This document shows, one piece after another, positions 22,322-56,090 of a DNA stretch of 64,000 bases; the first letter of the stretch is position 1; each line of letters begins with the position of its first letter. The translations under genes were made by a program, and so were the position numbers. The notes beneath the pieces are model-generated. The model was not told where the DNA came from and did not search any database. It was given only the letters and a program-made list of their open reading frames with translations. This DNA is from an uncultured bacterium (lineage in GTDB: Bacteria; Krumholzibacteriota; Krumholzibacteriia; Krumholzibacteriales; Krumholzibacteriaceae). Where the stretch lies: assembly GCA_963846325.1 (NCBI GenBank), contig CAWJVO010000006.1, positions 34,514-98,513 on the forward strand, written 5' to 3'.

Positions 22322-22398
22322 GCCCCCGTAGCTCAGATGGATAGAGCAGCGGTTTCCTAAACCGTTTGTCGGACGTTCGAATCGTCTCGGGGGCACCA
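22322..22398 (+). tRNA. tRNA-Arg (anticodon CCT)
   Basis: Acceptor GCCCCCG/CGGGGGC, anticodon stem GCGGT/ACCGT with loop TTCCTAA, T-loop TTCGAAT, encoded CCA. Confidence 0.9.
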
Positions 22399-22403
22399 CA
22401 TAA

Positions 22404-22593
22404 TAAAGGGAATTGTCCTTCGCAGTGCGGAAGAGGCAATTCCCTTTTTTTCTAACGAGACCGGGAGACGACTACCTTGCGTGACGTGTCTCAACCGCCC
22501 TTCAGAGGCCTAACGCAGCAAGATCGCTTCGCTTCAAAGGTTGGCTTGAGAGCAGACGGATCACGAGCGCGTAGTCCGCTCCTTGTCTCGTTG
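22404..22593 (-). ncRNA. candidate structured small RNA of unknown class (rod-like fold plus terminator)
   Basis: Starts about 7 nt downstream of a consensus promoter. The 5' end AACGAGAC (22592-22585) pairs with GTCTCGTT (22461-22454) just before the terminator, and the helix continues as GGAG/CTCC, GACTAC/GTAGTC, CGTGAT/GTCACG, CTCAA/TTGAG. Several G-U pairs exist only in the minus-sense RNA. No credible ORF. Confidence 0.42.
22406..22452. terminator. bidirectional rho-independent terminator
   Basis: Stem GGGAATTG (22408-22415) / CAATTCCC (22437-22444) with an inner CTTC/GAAG extension. Followed by T7 on the + strand and by TTTATTAT on the - strand. Confidence 0.7.
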
Positions 22594-22599
22594 AACATG

Positions 22600-22627
22600 A
22601 TTATAGACCAGGAAAACTCCGTGTCAA
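22600..22627 (-). promoter_or_regulatory. consensus sigma70-type promoter (TTGACA-N16-TATAAT)
   Basis: Minus-strand reading: TTGACA (22627-22622), 16-nt spacer, TATAAT (22605-22600). An A/T-rich tract (CACTTTTTTC) lies immediately upstream of the -35. Confidence 0.55.
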
Positions 22628-22815
22628 GAAAAAAGTGACAATTATTACCAATTTGTATATGCTTATATATGAAATTGTTACTGATAATATCTAATGTAGC
22701 ACATTAATAATATCGAACCGATTGACAAAAGGTGTTGACGGGGCCGGGGCGGCCTGTCGATTCTTCAGGCTTTCGTGCCTTCGACCCGTGGCGCGCGAAT
22801 CGCGGGAGCGGCCCG

Positions 22816-22865: not shown

Positions 22866-23121
22866 TCACTTTTGCGAGCCGGATTTCTTTCGTTCCGACT
22901 CAGCGGAGCCACCACAGGAGGTCAATGATCAGGCACCATGCAAACATGGCTATCACCCCCTGAAAGGTCACCGAAGCCGTCTTCACATTTCAACACCCCA
23001 TCCCCGGACCTTGCAATGAACATGAGAAGCATATGCCGTGCCCGGGGCGGAGACGCCGAGACATGCGCCGTGGCAACCGACGCAATATATATGAGATACG
23101 CCGAAGAAATGGGGAACCTGA

Positions 23122-25593
23122 TTACTGGCTGTTTCTGCGGAGAAGGACGAGCGTCATGTCATCTTTCAAGCTGTTCTGGCCAAATGCGAGCAGTGTGGCA
23201 AATAACTTCTCGATGAGCGCGTTGATCGATTGTTGCGCGTTGCTCCTGAAGAATTCTATCAATCTCGGCTCTCCGAAAGGCTCCCCTTGCGGGCTTTCCT
23301 GGTCGATTATTCCGTCCGTATAGATGACGAGGAGGTCTCCGGCTCTCAGCCTGAGGACGCCTTCCATGTATTCGCTTTCCGACTCGACGCCGATGAGAAT
23401 GCCCCCTCTCTGCAGCCTGTTGATCCTGCCGTCCGGGGATATGACGAAGGGAGGATACGATCCCGCGTTCGAATACCGGATGATGCCGCTCGCGTCCTCG
23501 TACACCGCGTAGAAGAGCGTCGCGAATTTTTCCGCGTCGCTCCGCTCGTAGAGAGAGGCGTTGAGACTCGTGATGACCGCCGCGGGGCTGTCGGACTTCA
23601 TGCCGTCGATTCTCAGCGAAGCCTGTATCGTGGTCATGAGGAGCGCCGCCGGAATCCCCTTGCCCGATACGTCGGCCACGGCGATCCCGATCTTTCCCTC
23701 TCCGAGCTCGAGGAAATCGTAGAAATCCCCTCCGACCTCCCGGCTCGTTCGTATGCCTCCCAGGAGCCCCGCGAAGGCGAGCGGGGGAGGGGATGCGGGG
23801 AGAAGCCGCGCCTGGATATCGCTCGCGAGGTGAAGCTCCTCCTCGAGCTTTTCCTTTTCGATGGAATCTCTGCAGAGCTCGACGTTCATGAGAGCGACCG
23901 CGCTCCGCTCTCCGAGGAGCTCGAAGATCTCGCTGTCGGACCGGGTATACGGCTTGCCGGAGCTCTTGCGCCCGACGAGCAGGAATCCGAAAAGCTCGTC
24001 CTGCTCCATGAGAGGAACGGCCGCCGACGCGCGCGAGTTCGCGATGAGCTCCCGCGAGATCCCGTCGAAGTTGTTCTTGATCCAGAGCCTGTCGAAGCAC
24101 TCGAGCATTATCGGCAGACGCTCCTCGCGCATGAGCGTGATGAGATCGGTTCCGGGAGGAAACGAGGTGAGCGCCAGCCGTTTGTCCGGCGGGGCGCTCT
24201 CCCTCAGGGTGAAATTGCCGGATCCGTCCCTCAGGAAGAGGTACGCGTGCTCGGCGCGAAAGACGGAGAGTATCCGCGCCGTGACGAACGAGCCGATTTC
24301 CGCGACCGACCGGAGATACTGAATCTGCCTCGAGAACGCGATGACCTCGTCCTTGAAAGCCTTCCTGCTCTGGTAGAAAGCGCGATCGACGATTCTCTGG
24401 ATTCCGACGCGCGCCGGAACGATCGCGAGCGCCAGGAGAATGATCGCCGCGCCGGTGACGAACGTCGCCTGCGCGCCGAAAACGCGTTTCATCTCCTGTT
24501 CCAGCGCGGTGACGAACGCGTAATAGAGCGCGATGACGAACACGAGCAGCATCACGTAGGCGATGGATTTTCTCACGACGACGCCCAGATCGAGCGCGTC
24601 GTGCTTGAGGATCGCGTACGCGAACGATATCGGCATGAAGGAGAGGAAGAACGACCAGAGGTACCGGACCGGCACCGTCCCCGTCGGCAGCAATTGTTTG
24701 ATCAGCATAAGGACGGTGAGAGGCACGACCCCCAGCGCCACACCGATGATGACGATTCCGAATTTCTGCCGCTGCGCCCGTTCCGACACGAAATACGTCC
24801 GGATGAATACCGCGAGGCTCGCGACGACGTAGCAGAGCCAATAAACAATCGTGAGAGCGTTGAGGACGCCGATGAGGGCGCTCATGCGCCCGCCTCCCGA
24901 ATATCGCCAGAGCGCGAGAATGAAGGTCGAGAGCGAGAGGATTCCCGGCGGGATGTACAGAAAACCGACGAGCCGCCGCCTCCTCGTCCCGCGCTCGATC
25001 TCGCGCCCCGGAAAGAGGAGAAAAAAATGAAGAAAGAACGCAGGGAGAAAGATGAACAGGAAATCGTAAATGAGCTCTCCGACGATGTGAAGGAAGGGGA
25101 TGCCGGTGATCGGGCGCTCCGTGATGAGAAAGGCGAACATGAGGCAATTCGCCGAGAACAGGGCGCCGAGAATATCGGATCGCTTCGCGAAGACGGTGAG
25201 CCCCGCGAGGAGAAACGTGAAGCCGACGACGAGAAGCGAGAACTTTCCCGAGACGTGCCAGGCGGGCTGGGTCCCGCACAGCACCCCGACCCGGAACGTC
25301 GAATCTCCCCGCGCGACCGTGAAGTCGAGCGGAGAGGCGCCGCGGTTCGAGAAGACGAGGCTCGCATAATGATTCAGGTTCCTGGGGCTCACGCCGTTGA
25401 CGGCGATGATCCGATCGCCCGGCCGGAGCCCGAGATCCCTGTTCGGGCTCGTCTGCTCGATCGCGCGGATCGCGAAATTGTAATGGAGAATTCCGGTGTA
25501 GGGAGACCGGGTGAAGTCCCGGAACCCCAGCGAGCCGAGCAGGGCGATGATCACCGCGAGAACCACGATGGCGATCAACGAAACCCGGGTCAT
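23122..25593 (-). CDS. membrane sensor phosphatase: periplasmic PDZ, polytopic membrane region, GAF, PP2C/SpoIIE phosphatase
   Basis: PDZ-like GLRPGDRIIAVNG near the N-terminus, followed by about 9 hydrophobic helices and a GAF-like segment. C-terminal SpoIIE motifs SREVGGDFYDF, ADVSGKGIPAALLM, YTDGIIDQ. Confidence 0.85.
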   Translation of the reverse strand: MTRVSLIAIVVLAVIIALLGSLGFRDFTRSPYTGILHYNFAIRAIEQTSPNRDLGLRPGDRIIAVNGVSPRNLNHYASLVFSNRGASPLDFTVARGDSTFRVGVLCGTQPAWHVSGKFSLLVVGFTFLLAGLTVFAKRSDILGALFSANCLMFAFLITERPITGIPFLHIVGELIYDFLFIFLPAFFLHFFLLFPGREIERGTRRRRLVGFLYIPPGILSLSTFILALWRYSGGGRMSALIGVLNALTIVYWLCYVVASLAVFIRTYFVSERAQRQKFGIVIIGVALGVVPLTVLMLIKQLLPTGTVPVRYLWSFFLSFMPISFAYAILKHDALDLGVVVRKSIAYVMLLVFVIALYYAFVTALEQEMKRVFGAQATFVTGAAIILLALAIVPARVGIQRIVDRAFYQSRKAFKDEVIAFSRQIQYLRSVAEIGSFVTARILSVFRAEHAYLFLRDGSGNFTLRESAPPDKRLALTSFPPGTDLITLMREERLPIMLECFDRLWIKNNFDGISRELIANSRASAAVPLMEQDELFGFLLVGRKSSGKPYTRSDSEIFELLGERSAVALMNVELCRDSIEKEKLEEELHLASDIQARLLPASPPPLAFAGLLGGIRTSREVGGDFYDFLELGEGKIGIAVADVSGKGIPAALLMTTIQASLRIDGMKSDSPAAVITSLNASLYERSDAEKFATLFYAVYEDASGIIRYSNAGSYPPFVISPDGRINRLQRGGILIGVESESEYMEGVLRLRAGDLLVIYTDGIIDQESPQGEPFGEPRLIEFFRSNAQQSINALIEKLFATLLAFGQNSLKDDMTLVLLRRNSQ

Positions 25594-32499: not shown

Positions 32500-33883
<1,384 letters not shown>

Positions 33884-33909
<26 letters not shown>

Positions 33910-35995
33910 ACGAACCTCCCTTCCTCGGTCGCGCGATCGGCAGGTATACCCTGAACGAAGTTCCCTTGCCCGGAGCCGAAGAAACGGAAATGCGCCCGTG
34001 GTGATGCTGCACGACGCTCTGGCTCACGAAAAGGCCGAGGCCGGTACCGCCCTTCTTCCGCGAGAAGAACGGCTCGAATATCTTCTCCTTGTCCTCAGGC
34101 GCGATTCCCGCGCCGTCGTCCGTGATCTCGAAACACACCATATCGCGATCTTTCTCCCTCACGACGTCGGGGTCTCCACCGTCATAGAGTCTCCCCGCGA
34201 CCGAAACGGACCCGCCCGGAGACACCGCCTCCGCGGCGTTCTTGAGCAGGTTTATGAGCACCTGCATGATCTGGTCGGGATCGACTTCGACCAGGGGAAC
34301 ATTATCGTCAACGACCGCCGTAAAAGCAATTCCCTTGTTCTTGAACTGGTCCTCGAGCGACCGCCGGCTGCGCTCGATGAGACTCTGGACGCTCGTCTTC
34401 TGGCAGAGAAGATCGCTCGGCTTGGCGACCTTGAAGAGATCGGTGATGATCCGGTTGAGCCTGTCGACCTCGGCGAGGATAAAGGAGATATTCTCGCGAT
34501 GCTCCGCGCTCAGCCCCTGCGACCGGTTGATATACTGAATGCCGGCGGCGATGCCGGTGAGGGGATTCCTGATCTCGTGCGCGACGGCGGAGGTGAAGCG
34601 CCCGAGAACGGCGAGGCGGTCGAGATAGCGTATCTCCTCCTCCATTCGCTTGATCTCGCTCATATCGATGAACTCGATAATGGCGCCCTGCACGTCGCCG
34701 TCCTCCCCGGAGAGCGCGGACGCCGTCAATCTGATCGGCATATGAATGCCGTCCTTGCGCCGGAGATACCCGTCGACGTAGGTGAGCGGCGAGCCGCTCT
34801 CGAGCACCGGAGACACGAGAGATTTCCTCGTTCCGCCCGCCATTTCCCCGATAATGATATCGTCGATTCTGAGGCCCCGTATCTGCCGCTGCTTGAATTG
34901 GCTCATGTCGCGCGCGGTGCGATTCGCGAGGGTCACGTTGCCGTCCCTGTCGGCGACGAAGACGCCGTTCAGCATCCCCTCGATGACCCGCTCCCTGAAC
35001 AGCTCCTCCTGGCGAAGCTCCTGGTACAGGTACCAGTTCTCCATGTTCGAGCTGACGAGCGATCCCACCGTTTCGAGCGTCACCTGGTCGATGTTCGTGA
35101 GGGGAGTCGCCCGGTATCCGTCCGAGACGATGAGCGCCCCGAGGAGCGGAATCTCGCCGCACGAGAGGCATTCCTCGCTGCGCAGGTACGGAATCTCCTG
35201 CGGGGCTTGCCCCGGGGGGGGCGCGGTCTGCTTGAGGGGACAGTCCTCGTTCTCGTAGCAATCGATCGTTTCGGTCGATTTCATGAGGGGAACGCACAGG
35301 TACGAGGTCATGGTGCTCCCCGGAAAGACCTGCTCCCCGGCGACGGTGAAGAGCGGATGCATCTCGGCATCCTTGATGAGGAAGGGTTTGCCCGAGAGGA
35401 ACGAATCGTATACGGCGCTCGTGAGATCCCCGAAACCGAAATTGAGCACCCGCCGGATGACGCGCGAGGGGCGCTCGATCGTGACGATCGCCTGGAACGA
35501 CCTCTTTTTTCTGCGAAGGATGATAAAGGCCGCTTCCTTGTAGCCGATGCCTCGATTCAGGTACTCGAAGACCGAATCGATGAGCCGATGCTCGTCGAGG
35601 GAGCTGATAATCGTTCTCCCGATCTCCTTGAGGCTCAGGAGCTGGATGTTCTTCTCGACGAGCCTGAAGAGCGACCGTTCGAGGTCGCCGAGGAGAGTCA
35701 TGATCATCCGGTAGAAGACGTCCTCGTCCGATCCCTTCACCTTCTCCTCGATGACGAGCCCCTCGCTCCTGAGGTTGGTGAGGCGCAGGTTGATCGCCTC
35801 CATCTTCGCGCGGTGATCGGATCGACGGCGCATGATCGCGGCCGCGGCGATACCGCAGCCGAGCGGCACGCAGATCCATACGGGAATCGCGAGCGTGGCG
35901 AGAAGAAGCAGGCAGAATCCCGCGGATATAAAGATGATGTCTCGATAAAGCCTCATATGATCACTGGGGGGCGAGTATACGGAGGCGCGTCGCAT
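33884..35995 (-). CDS. sensor histidine kinase (2 TM, GAF-like, PAS, HisKA, HATPase_c)
   Basis: H-box SAVAHEIRNPLTGI. N-box NLLKNAAEA. G-boxes DDGAGI and GTGLGLFVS. Overlaps the regulator gene by 26 nt. An alternative start is ATG 35956. Confidence 0.9.
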
Positions 35996-42783: not shown

Positions 42784-42799
42784 CGCAAAAGGTATGCCA
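42784..42799 (-). promoter_or_regulatory. near-consensus sigma54 -24/-12 promoter
   Basis: Minus-strand TGGCAT-ACCTT-TTGCG against the consensus TGGCAC-N5-TTGCW. It lies 36-51 nt upstream of the GGDEF ATG, in a 100-nt intergenic spacer. Confidence 0.5.
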
Positions 42800-55833: not shown

Positions 55834-55863
55834 GAAAATAATTCCCCACGCTGTGCCGTGTGG
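55834..55863 (-). terminator. candidate rho-independent terminator downstream of zapA
   Basis: Minus-strand CCACACG-gcacag-CGTGGGG (one mismatch) followed by AATTATTTTC. Confidence 0.45.
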
Positions 55864-56090
55864 TGAAGCCCCTTTAAAGCCGGAAACACAAGGTGGAAAT
55901 CCGCATGACCGTTTCTGCGATCCCGGTCGCGCCGGGCTTGGCATCGGCGGCCAGATATAGGATTTCCGGGCTAAAGGTGTTGGCTAAAAATTTACTTCTC
56001 CATCACGAGCACGGTAGGGAATTTCTCGTTCCGCGTGCGATGACCTTCTCCTCACGGTCCAGTGATTTCCGGCCAACACCCCAGGGCAAG
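55834..56090 (-). ncRNA. candidate structured RNA in the zapA-rny gap (6S RNA/ssrS-like position)
   Basis: About 250 nt non-coding between the zapA stop and a terminator. Long-range helix GCCGGAAA(T)CAC (56073-56062) / GTGTTTCCGGC (55889-55879) encloses about 195 nt. A competing perfect 9-bp helix is GGTGTTGGC / GCCAACACC. The zapA-ssrS synteny is known from E. coli. No covariance evidence is available. Confidence 0.25.

Follow-up and report, generated by a model that had tools for sequence, protein, structure and literature searches.

A previously undescribed gene for a hairpin-shaped non-coding RNA in Candidatus Krumholzibacteriota

The DNA analyzed here is a 64,000-nucleotide stretch (the window) of contig CAWJVO010000006.1, from an uncultured bacterium of the Krumholzibacteriota. 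On its minus strand, between positions 22627 and 22400, a sigma-70 promoter matching the consensus at 12 of 12 positions precedes a 139-nt rod whose two ends pair, and a terminator comes next. We conclude that the locus is a genuine gene, not described before, whose product is a hairpin-shaped non-coding RNA. A preliminary description of the DNA had proposed an independently transcribed structured RNA at this place, and the proposal is borne out by homologous loci, where promoter, rod, and terminator are conserved together in either orientation. Among these loci, which are described below, we distinguish clade A, clade B, and deep branches. The parts of the gene are as follows.

22628..22650, minus strand: AT-rich upstream tract, a likely UP element, made up of GGTAAT, AATTGTCAC, and a run of six T abutting the -35 hexamer
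22622..22627, minus strand: -35 hexamer TTGACA, invariant in all homologues, deep branches included
22600..22605, minus strand: -10 hexamer TATAAT after a 16-nt spacer; TATAAT in clades A and B, TATACT or TAAAAT in deep branches
22454..22592, minus strand: rod-shaped RNA body of 139 nt with both ends paired, scoring 150.8 bits with the covariance model
22445..22453, minus strand: A-rich linker AGAAAAAAA joining rod to terminator; on the plus strand, the T-run of the tRNA-Arg terminator
22400..22444, minus strand: intrinsic terminator (hairpin 22444-22408 and UUUAUUAU), common to the convergent tRNA-Arg(CCT)

The promoter, TTGACA-N16-TATAAT at 22627-22600, is the sole site with at most one mismatch from the consensus on both strands of the 64-kb window, and the window's tRNA and 6S RNA genes are without such promoter architecture. 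Estrem et al. reportedly gave the UP consensus as AAAWWTWTTTT in 1998. In the tract upstream of the -35 hexamer, an A-then-T run is centered near -52 and a T-run extends from -43 to -37; these are the places assigned to the two UP subsites, distal and proximal, and strong distal subsites typically contain A-then-T tracts (PMC3326320). The GGTAAT of the window is TGATAAT in nearly all homologues, and TGATAAT and the T-tract hold their positions in the promoters of all of clade A, all of clade B, and L056, a low-GC lineage. Both the promoter and the T-rich UP-like tract had been named in the preliminary description, and both stand. A Fur box (TGATAAT-N-ATTGTCA upstream of the -35 hexamer) was considered and is judged less likely, because its left half alone is conserved and the position and A/T-tract layout suit a UP element better. 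About 60 nt before the -35 hexamer lies a further AT-rich motif, TACATNATATAG (22660-22740, minus strand), which is conserved within one sub-clade (the window and L001-L004) and may act as a regulator site or belong to an extended UP region.

All true copies share one layout: TGATAAT, T-tract, TTGACA, a spacer of 16 to 19 nt, TATAAT, rod, and terminator. The distance from the -10 hexamer to the first helix base is 7 nt in the window and 6 to 8 nt across clade A, and transcription is predicted to start at or beside 22592. The whole RNA is predicted to be about 190 nt long, composed of the rod (about 139 nt) and the terminator hairpin. The latter was unlisted by a simple terminator scan; it is present in the computed fold at the place first proposed for it, and its stem letters differ between loci with compensation. 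This hairpin is a bidirectional terminator, since on the plus strand it precedes TTTTTTT and terminates tRNA-Arg. With its own promoter and intrinsic terminator, no open reading frame (ORF), and intergenic conservation, the locus has what would be expected of an independently transcribed small RNA gene.

Folded as a single sequence, the 189-nt transcript reaches -77.7 kcal/mol (z = -4.67), and 0 of 200 shuffles were as good. The first eight bases of the rod, AACGAGAC (22592-22585), pair with the last eight, GUCUCGUU (22461-22454). Comparison of homologues supports the fold. An alignment of 25 distinct sequences was built with MAFFT without reference to structure and gave an RNAalifold consensus of 38 pairs, in which 98.0% of cells form standard pairs, versus 27 to 48% when the partners are slid by 1 to 3 columns. 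Both partners have changed in 10 of the 38 pairs, located in P1, P3, P3b, and P5, and 0 of 500 shuffles reached the observed values. Compensatory changes thus keep the helices at levels above the controls, and the homologues with such changes that the preliminary description had called for do exist in related genomes. When four deep-branch sequences were added through the covariance model, two-sided changes rose to 20 of 38 pairs and every helix covaried; this alignment was fitted to the model and is biased towards structure. The helices and the apical domain are arranged as follows.

22586..22591, minus strand: P1 5' arm ACGAGA, pairing with UCUCGU at 22460-22455; 3 to 4 of 6 pairs two-sided (AU/UA, CG/UA, AU/GC)
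22571..22577, minus strand: P3 5' arm GGACUAC, pairing with GUAGUC at 22475-22470; 3 to 5 pairs two-sided
22559..22570, minus strand: 5' side of P3b and P4, GCG then CGUGAUC, pairing with CGC at 22481-22479 and GACACG at 22490-22485
22547..22555, minus strand: P5 5' arm CUGCUCUCA, pairing with UGAAGGGCGG at 22504-22495; 3 to 4 pairs two-sided
22504..22545, minus strand: sequence-invariant apical domain with a GCC/GGC helix, a 10-nt internal loop AACCUUUGAA, and further blocks
22495..22504, minus strand: P5 3' arm UGAAGGGCGG, partner of CUGCUCUCA
22479..22490, minus strand: 3' side of P4 and P3b, holding the invariant block GACACGU (22490-22484)
22470..22475, minus strand: P3 3' arm GUAGUC, partner of the P3 5' arm
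22455..22460, minus strand: P1 3' arm UCUCGU, partner of 22586-22591

Several helices of the preliminary fold survive comparison with 25 to 29 homologues and several do not. The pairing of the transcript ends is supported by covariation in P1, the GACTAC/GTAGTC helix is right and covaries, and the apical hairpin was about right, all of its variation falling inside the GAUCUU loop (GACAUU, GAUCAU, GAUGUU, and GAUCUG in homologues). In contrast, GGAG/CTCC sits in a variable, indel-rich stretch and is not a conserved helix, and CGTGAT/GTCACG was drawn in the wrong register, the conserved pairing being CGUG(A)UC (22565-22559) with GACACG (22490-22485). The minimum-energy pairs CTCAA/TTGAG and CCTTT/GAAGG are specific to the window and are lost in clade B; the pairs that are conserved are CUGCUC..CA with UG..GGGCGG, and GCC with GGC.

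Conservation of sequence is distributed unevenly along the rod, with 49 of 91 columns invariant in the apical two-thirds versus 9 of 45 in the basal part. There are five invariant blocks: UCGUGAU, AAGCGAAGCGA, GCUGC, AGGCCUCU, and GACACGU. The 5' side of P3b and P4, which holds the first of these blocks (22566-22560), is invariant in the 25 sequences, and covariation appears there only in deep branches. The apex carries AAGCGAAGCGA at 22534-22524, the variable loop GAUCUU, GCUGC at 22519-22515, and AGGCCUCU at 22511-22504. In both the single-sequence and the consensus folds, the largest internal loop of the rod lies near the apex and measures 10 nt by 3 to 4 nt.

The strand is not settled by one sequence, because the opposite strand folds equally well (-81.4 for the plus strand). 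The minus strand is nevertheless the functional, transcribed strand, as the comparative pairing and the asymmetry between G-U and A-C pairs establish. Standard pairs make up 98.0% of cells on the promoter strand versus 85.3% on the other, and the promoter strand has 123 G-U cells versus 2 A-C cells across the homologues, which extends to the whole family an argument first made from a few wobble positions of the window. The consensus fold energies are -30.1 kcal/mol for the promoter strand versus -21.8 kcal/mol for the other, and the covariance model gives about 14 bits to the antisense versus 151 to the sense. The RNA is non-coding. It has no conserved reading frame, all three frames being interrupted by stops and the conserved core by 1-nt indels, which rules out a hidden small ORF and agrees with the earlier remark that no credible ORF lies here.

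Orthologous loci were recovered from genomes labelled Candidatus Krumholzibacteriota by anchoring on a phosphatase gene that lies beside the RNA, and the RNA was found in ten of these phosphatase-anchored loci. A pattern derived from the invariant apical block then returned 20 further metagenome copies, together with 4 chance matches inside coding sequence; it demanded three blocks, AAGCGAAGCGA, GCUGC, and the AGGCC of AGGCCUCU. The covariance model, built on the 25 distinct sequences (which score 113 to 157 bits), finds exactly one copy per locus and no copy in 12 loci from other phyla. Deeper homologues were sought on contigs of phosphatase orthologues with 35 to 40% identity, and syntenic copies were found at L057 (44.7 bits), L053 (38), L051 and L052 (28.5), L055 (21.7), and, with filters off, L049 (13.7). 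In total, single-copy homologues occur in about 35 Krumholzibacteriota loci, in some of which the neighboring protein is only 35 to 40% identical. With the same model no RNA was detected at L054 and L058, from the tier of 27 to 28% phosphatase identity.

L056 (7640-7870) has, at the corresponding site, TGATAAT...TTGACA-N18-TATAAT, a rod (z = -3.9), and a terminator; its RNA is too diverged in sequence for the model to detect and retains only GUGAU, GACACG, and GGUAGU. The promoters of L049, L051, and L053 read TTGACA-N17-TAnAnT. In these three lineages (L049 12900-13026, L051 12857-12980, L053 6073-6195) there is no separate terminator hairpin and a U-run or U-rich tail directly follows P1, so the rod is probably its own terminator in deep-branching lineages. 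The region upstream of the RNA is not AT-rich in these three. Between clades A and B the rod is 75% identical, with a much higher value for its core, as compared with 84% for the adjacent tRNA-Arg and 47 to 65% for the neighboring proteins. In L008-L011 the phosphatase is 47% identical and the RNA core still about 82%, and the RNA is in the opposite orientation with its promoter moved along with it. The inversion in clade B comprises a mini-ORF with its hairpin (see below), the promoter, the RNA, and the terminator as one segment between the phosphatase gene and tRNA-Arg (L008-L011, L043, and L044; for example, L011 8447-8921, minus strand), and the terminator of the RNA faces the 3' end of the phosphatase gene.

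The RNA is a vertically inherited, single-copy chromosomal gene across Candidatus Krumholzibacteriota. Mobile or phage origin was rejected, as no match to the RNA occurs in viral contigs, phages, or plasmid collections; a multi-copy repeat or miniature transposable element was rejected likewise, as no second copy exists in the window or in any locus. Two irregular copies were observed, a duplication of about 60 nt of the apical half at L029 (3024-3170; CGAAGCGATCTTGCTGCTCAGGCCTCTGAAGGGCGGTTGAGACACGTCAC, twice) and two partial copies joined across Ns at L043 (about 1085-1160), both of which are probably assembly artefacts from mixed strains.

The surroundings of the RNA gene are housekeeping genes. 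One flank holds an M23 peptidase, a sigma-70-family factor, a phosphoribosyltransferase, and tRNA-Arg; the other holds a PDZ-GAF-SpoIIE (PP2C) membrane phosphatase, a TPR protein, DUF4870, LeuRS, HolA, a sigma-54 activator, and a PAS histidine kinase. The features of the window to which we refer below are listed here.

22322..22398, plus strand: tRNA-Arg(CCT), convergent with the RNA; a neighbor only in clades A and B and L056
22827..22867, minus strand: GAAUGUUCCCG-N19-CGGGAACAUU, a hairpin downstream of the mini-ORF with a T-rich run behind it, which probably terminates the mini-ORF transcript
22900..22947, minus strand: 15-codon ORF (mini-ORF), MFAWCLIIDLLWWLR*, ATG...TGA, with Shine-Dalgarno sequence AGGGGG (22961-22956) 8 nt upstream
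23029..23042, minus strand: sigma-54-like -24/-12 element GGCACGGCATATGC upstream of the mini-ORF, position conserved in all lineages
23122..25593, minus strand: gene for a membrane PDZ-GAF-PP2C (SpoIIE/RsbU-type) phosphatase, by Pfam domains; the syntenic anchor
32500-33909, minus strand: sigma-54 activator response regulator, about 10 kb from the RNA locus
33884-35995, minus strand: PAS histidine kinase, about 10 kb from the RNA locus
55839-56023, minus strand: canonical 6S RNA (RF00013), full-length model, 83.4 bits

The stable linkage of the RNA is to the phosphatase gene and not to the tRNA, because the deep-branch RNAs keep phosphatase synteny without a nearby tRNA (none was found near the RNA in the deep-branch loci examined). 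The module follows the phosphatase gene in all lineages down to 35% identity, and its conserved order is the membrane PP2C phosphatase gene, then the sigma-54-type promoter with the 15-codon ORF and hairpin, then the sigma-70 promoter with the RNA. The preliminary description had seen no adjacent protein partner; that statement has to be revised, since the window has a conserved ORF of 15 codons some 300 nt upstream of the RNA. At every locus that extends far enough upstream, a six-frame scan found an ORF ending in ...(I/V)DL(L/F)WWLR, on the strand of the RNA and 168 to 310 nt upstream of it. Synonymous third-position changes are abundant (Ile ATC/ATT/ATA, Asp GAC/GAT, Leu CTC/CTT/CTG/TTG, Arg CGN/AGA, and all three stops) while the peptide is fixed, and this pattern shows that the mini-ORF is under protein-level selection. 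The hairpin that follows it keeps its core GUUCCCG/CGGGAAC and shows covariation in its outer pairs (AAU/AUU to GGU/ACC, CCCG/CGGG to CCUG/CAGG).

Sigma-54 promoters have GG-N10-GC at -24/-12 and the consensus TGGCACG-N4-TTGCW. About 70 to 100 nt upstream of the mini-ORF, GGCAYR-N4-(T/A)TGC is conserved (GGAACG-N4-TTGC in L053). The window holds 2 matches to the sigma-54-like pattern versus 0.71 expected; since this count by itself is not significant, the support for the site is its positional conservation. The other match, GGCATACCTTTTGC, is at 42785-42798 on the minus strand. The mini-ORF thus has a predicted sigma-54 promoter and, in its conserved neighborhood, a sigma-54 activator gene; the activator and the PAS kinase, whose gene order is also kept in the distant lineages L049 and L051, are candidate activators of this promoter. 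The peptide has no match in Pfam, NCBIfam, or literature text, and the mini-ORF would be missed by standard annotation. At L054 (12408-12470), the locus of the most distant phosphatase orthologue examined (27% identity), a related micro-ORF, MILETLVLTILFDIFWWLKR*, lies just downstream and the RNA is undetected. The link between ORF and phosphatase may be older than the RNA.

Searches against known RNA families place the RNA in none of them. At the gathering threshold, Rfam 15 annotates six tRNAs and the canonical 6S RNA in the 64-kb window. A 500-nt search at the RNA with E<=10 matched no family, 6S, SRP, and Y RNA included, in line with the earlier failure to assign a class; over the window, the RNA locus, and the mini-ORF region, the hits are only tRNAs, the one 6S RNA elsewhere, and chance microRNA matches. 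For 6S RNA, whose gathering threshold is 46.4 bits, the candidate gives no match even at this permissive cutoff, and where a large central bubble between long stems would be needed it has only small internal loops. The bacterial SRP RNA models (RF00169, RF01854) do not match at E<=10 either, and the apical loop GAUCUU is variable. Y RNA or YrlA membership is contradicted by the lack of an Rfam match, of a tRNA-like element (ARAGORN), and of an Rsr-type gene among the neighbors. A riboswitch or leader is contradicted by the terminator that directly follows the RNA and by the convergent gene beyond it (tRNA-Arg for clade A, SpoIIE for clade B).

As to function, we rank first, and give an even chance to, a role in trans in which the RNA binds, scaffolds, or sequesters a protein. 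This ranking rests on the resemblance of a covarying clamp beneath a sequence-fixed apex to RNAs that proteins recognize, SRP RNA for example; in design the RNA is similar to the SRP, 6S, and Y RNAs, although it is a member of none of these families. The basal helices P1, P3, and P5 would serve as a structural clamp, which is probable because their sequence evolves freely while pairing is kept. The apical half and the P3b/P4 module would be read in sequence by a conserved macromolecule; this is expected because they are fixed even inside helices. The paired 5' end and the closed rod would make the RNA stable, and the near-perfect promoter would make it abundant, a prediction drawn from promoter quality only. 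Several observations weigh against this interpretation. Neither a partner protein nor a recognized protein-binding RNA motif was found, and the abundance and the transcript ends are predictions. The block GGCCUCU is anti-Shine-Dalgarno-like and would also suit a base-pairing RNA. In addition, the blocks demanded by the search pattern inflate the apparent invariance in L025-L048, and since they were search criteria, independent support for them comes from the protein-anchored loci L001-L011, L053, and L057. The apical domain is also considerably diverged in the deep branches L049, L051, L055, and L056, so that "invariant" holds for clades A and B and not for the whole phylum.

A trans-acting base-pairing small RNA, in which conserved, partly unpaired seeds would block the ribosome-binding sites (RBSs) of mRNAs, is ranked second, as a possibility of distinctly modest weight. 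As is usual for small RNA genes, the locus has a promoter of its own and a U-tailed intrinsic terminator, and two candidate seeds can be named, the 10-nt loop AACCUUUGAA and an anti-Shine-Dalgarno-like CCUCU in AGGCCUCUG. In the sub-clade of the window, CCUCUGAAGG is moreover complementary to the ribosome-binding region of the mini-ORF over 8 to 11 bp, at -19 to -21 kcal/mol. However, the CCUCU block is largely paired within the rod, and the more than 50 invariant positions run through helices and loops, far beyond the needs of a seed. Pairing with the mini-ORF shows no co-evolution, the mean energy being -15.5 kcal/mol for cognate RNA/RBS pairs as against -14.9 for non-cognate pairs and -12.8 +/- 3.4 for shuffled RBSs, and the cognate pairs of clade B are worse than non-cognate ones. 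No seed match recurs at a conserved place in the local mRNAs, the set covered by the target search, which amounts to about 1 to 2% of a genome.

A broader proposal, speculative and rather improbable in our estimate, is that the RNA, the WW micropeptide, and the PDZ-GAF-PP2C phosphatase form a new signaling module, or that the RNA is a subunit of a phylum-specific ribonucleoprotein. If the former were true, a constitutively abundant RNA would be the partner or substrate-mimic of a component switched by a sigma-54-induced micropeptide; the latter would have no counterpart in studied bacteria.

A partnership of micro-ORF and RNA that resembles a type I toxin-antitoxin system or a regulator pair, with the RNA controlling translation or stability of the peptide mRNA, is unlikely. 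A small hydrophobic peptide adjoins an RNA whose expression is predicted to be strong, and the two are linked on one strand and co-inverted in clade B, but this joint inversion could just reflect breakpoints at the two flanking genes. The z-scores of duplexes between the RNA and the mini-ORF transcript range from -2.5 to +1.2 and center on 0, and neither extended complementarity, a seed site, a cognate advantage, nor co-evolving pairing is seen. Typical loci of this type also differ from a single-copy, syntenic locus that is inherited vertically over deep divergence and absent from mobile elements. To our knowledge, no type I toxin is as short as 15 residues. Two specific arrangements were rejected: antisense control of the mini-ORF by the RNA, given the duplex z-scores around zero and the lack of a recurrent seed or of co-evolution, and cross-pairing of the mini-ORF hairpin with the RNA or its terminator, which extends over 5 to 6 nt only and is not kept in clade B (by eye).

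A highly diverged universal housekeeping RNA beyond the reach of the Rfam models, for instance SRP RNA or a second 6S-type RNA, is very unlikely. The rod, conserved apex, covarying base, strong promoter, single copy, and phylum-wide vertical inheritance are those of the SRP/6S design; however, 6S, SRP, and Y RNA models give no match at E<=10, a variable hexaloop stands where a conserved GNRA tetraloop would, and there is no large central bubble. The canonical 6S RNA in the window also means that the 6S function of this genome is already accounted for. Least credible of all, to the point of being nearly dismissed, is a DNA-level palindrome without an RNA gene (a repeat or mobile remnant, a recombination site, or an over-long bidirectional terminator by a tRNA): the plus strand does fold as well as the minus strand in the window and tRNA genes, one of which the element abuts, are common integration sites, but the element occurs once per locus and nowhere else in the window, its G-U versus A-C asymmetry shows selection on one transcribed strand, a consensus promoter accompanies it in both orientations, and it lacks an adjoining tRNA in deep branches and is absent from mobile-element collections.

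The gene adds a well-supported RNA family to the Krumholzibacteriota, a phylum with no cultured member and for which our literature search found no described RNA biology. It combines features that usually mark important abundant RNAs, namely a perfect promoter, helix-locked ends, single-copy vertical inheritance, and near-tRNA conservation. The covariance model is ready for annotating genomes of the phylum, and the RNA is a candidate new RNA-protein system and a clean target for metatranscriptome validation. The micro-ORF is a rare case in which deep comparative data show selection on so tiny an ORF and indicate that it is translated.

Compared with known systems, the mini-ORF recalls the trpL-type leader peptides, including rhizobial rnTrpL/peTrpL: it shares with them a length of about 14 to 15 codons, tandem Trp near the C terminus, Arg and stop, and a hairpin with a T-run. 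Unlike trpL, however, it has Trp-Trp codons and a hairpin without trp genes downstream, a sigma-54-like promoter, and an entire conserved C terminus, IIDLLWWLR, with synonymous changes. Its WW-R-stop ending is likewise reminiscent of regulatory peptides of the trpL or TnaC type, but neither trp nor tna genes lie nearby.

The RNA itself resembles 6S RNA (SsrS, RF00013) in being a stand-alone, single-copy gene for a rod of about 140 to 190 nt with paired ends, presumably abundant and acting in trans on a protein. It differs in that the large central bubble by which 6S RNA mimics an open promoter is lacking, and in its long invariant blocks, 6S RNA conserving its shape more than its sequence. With small SRP RNA (4.5S, RF00169), it shares a hairpin form, a sequence-conserved apical domain with internal loops, a covarying basal stem, and single-copy, vertical inheritance; the model match, the GNRA tetraloop, and the domain IV loop motifs are absent, and the apical loop is variable. 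Comparative genomics has also revealed lineage-specific orphan structured small RNAs, such as Bacteroidales-1, Chlorobi-1, and Acido-1. Like these, the present RNA is confined to one lineage, hairpin-rich, equipped with its own promoter and terminator, and supported by covariation; unlike them, it shows a perfect promoter, a UP-like tract, and a fixed micro-ORF link, which are unusual, and the scan with Rfam 15 shows no homology to any of them. We regard it as a new RNA family, outside all the families tested but of a generally familiar kind.

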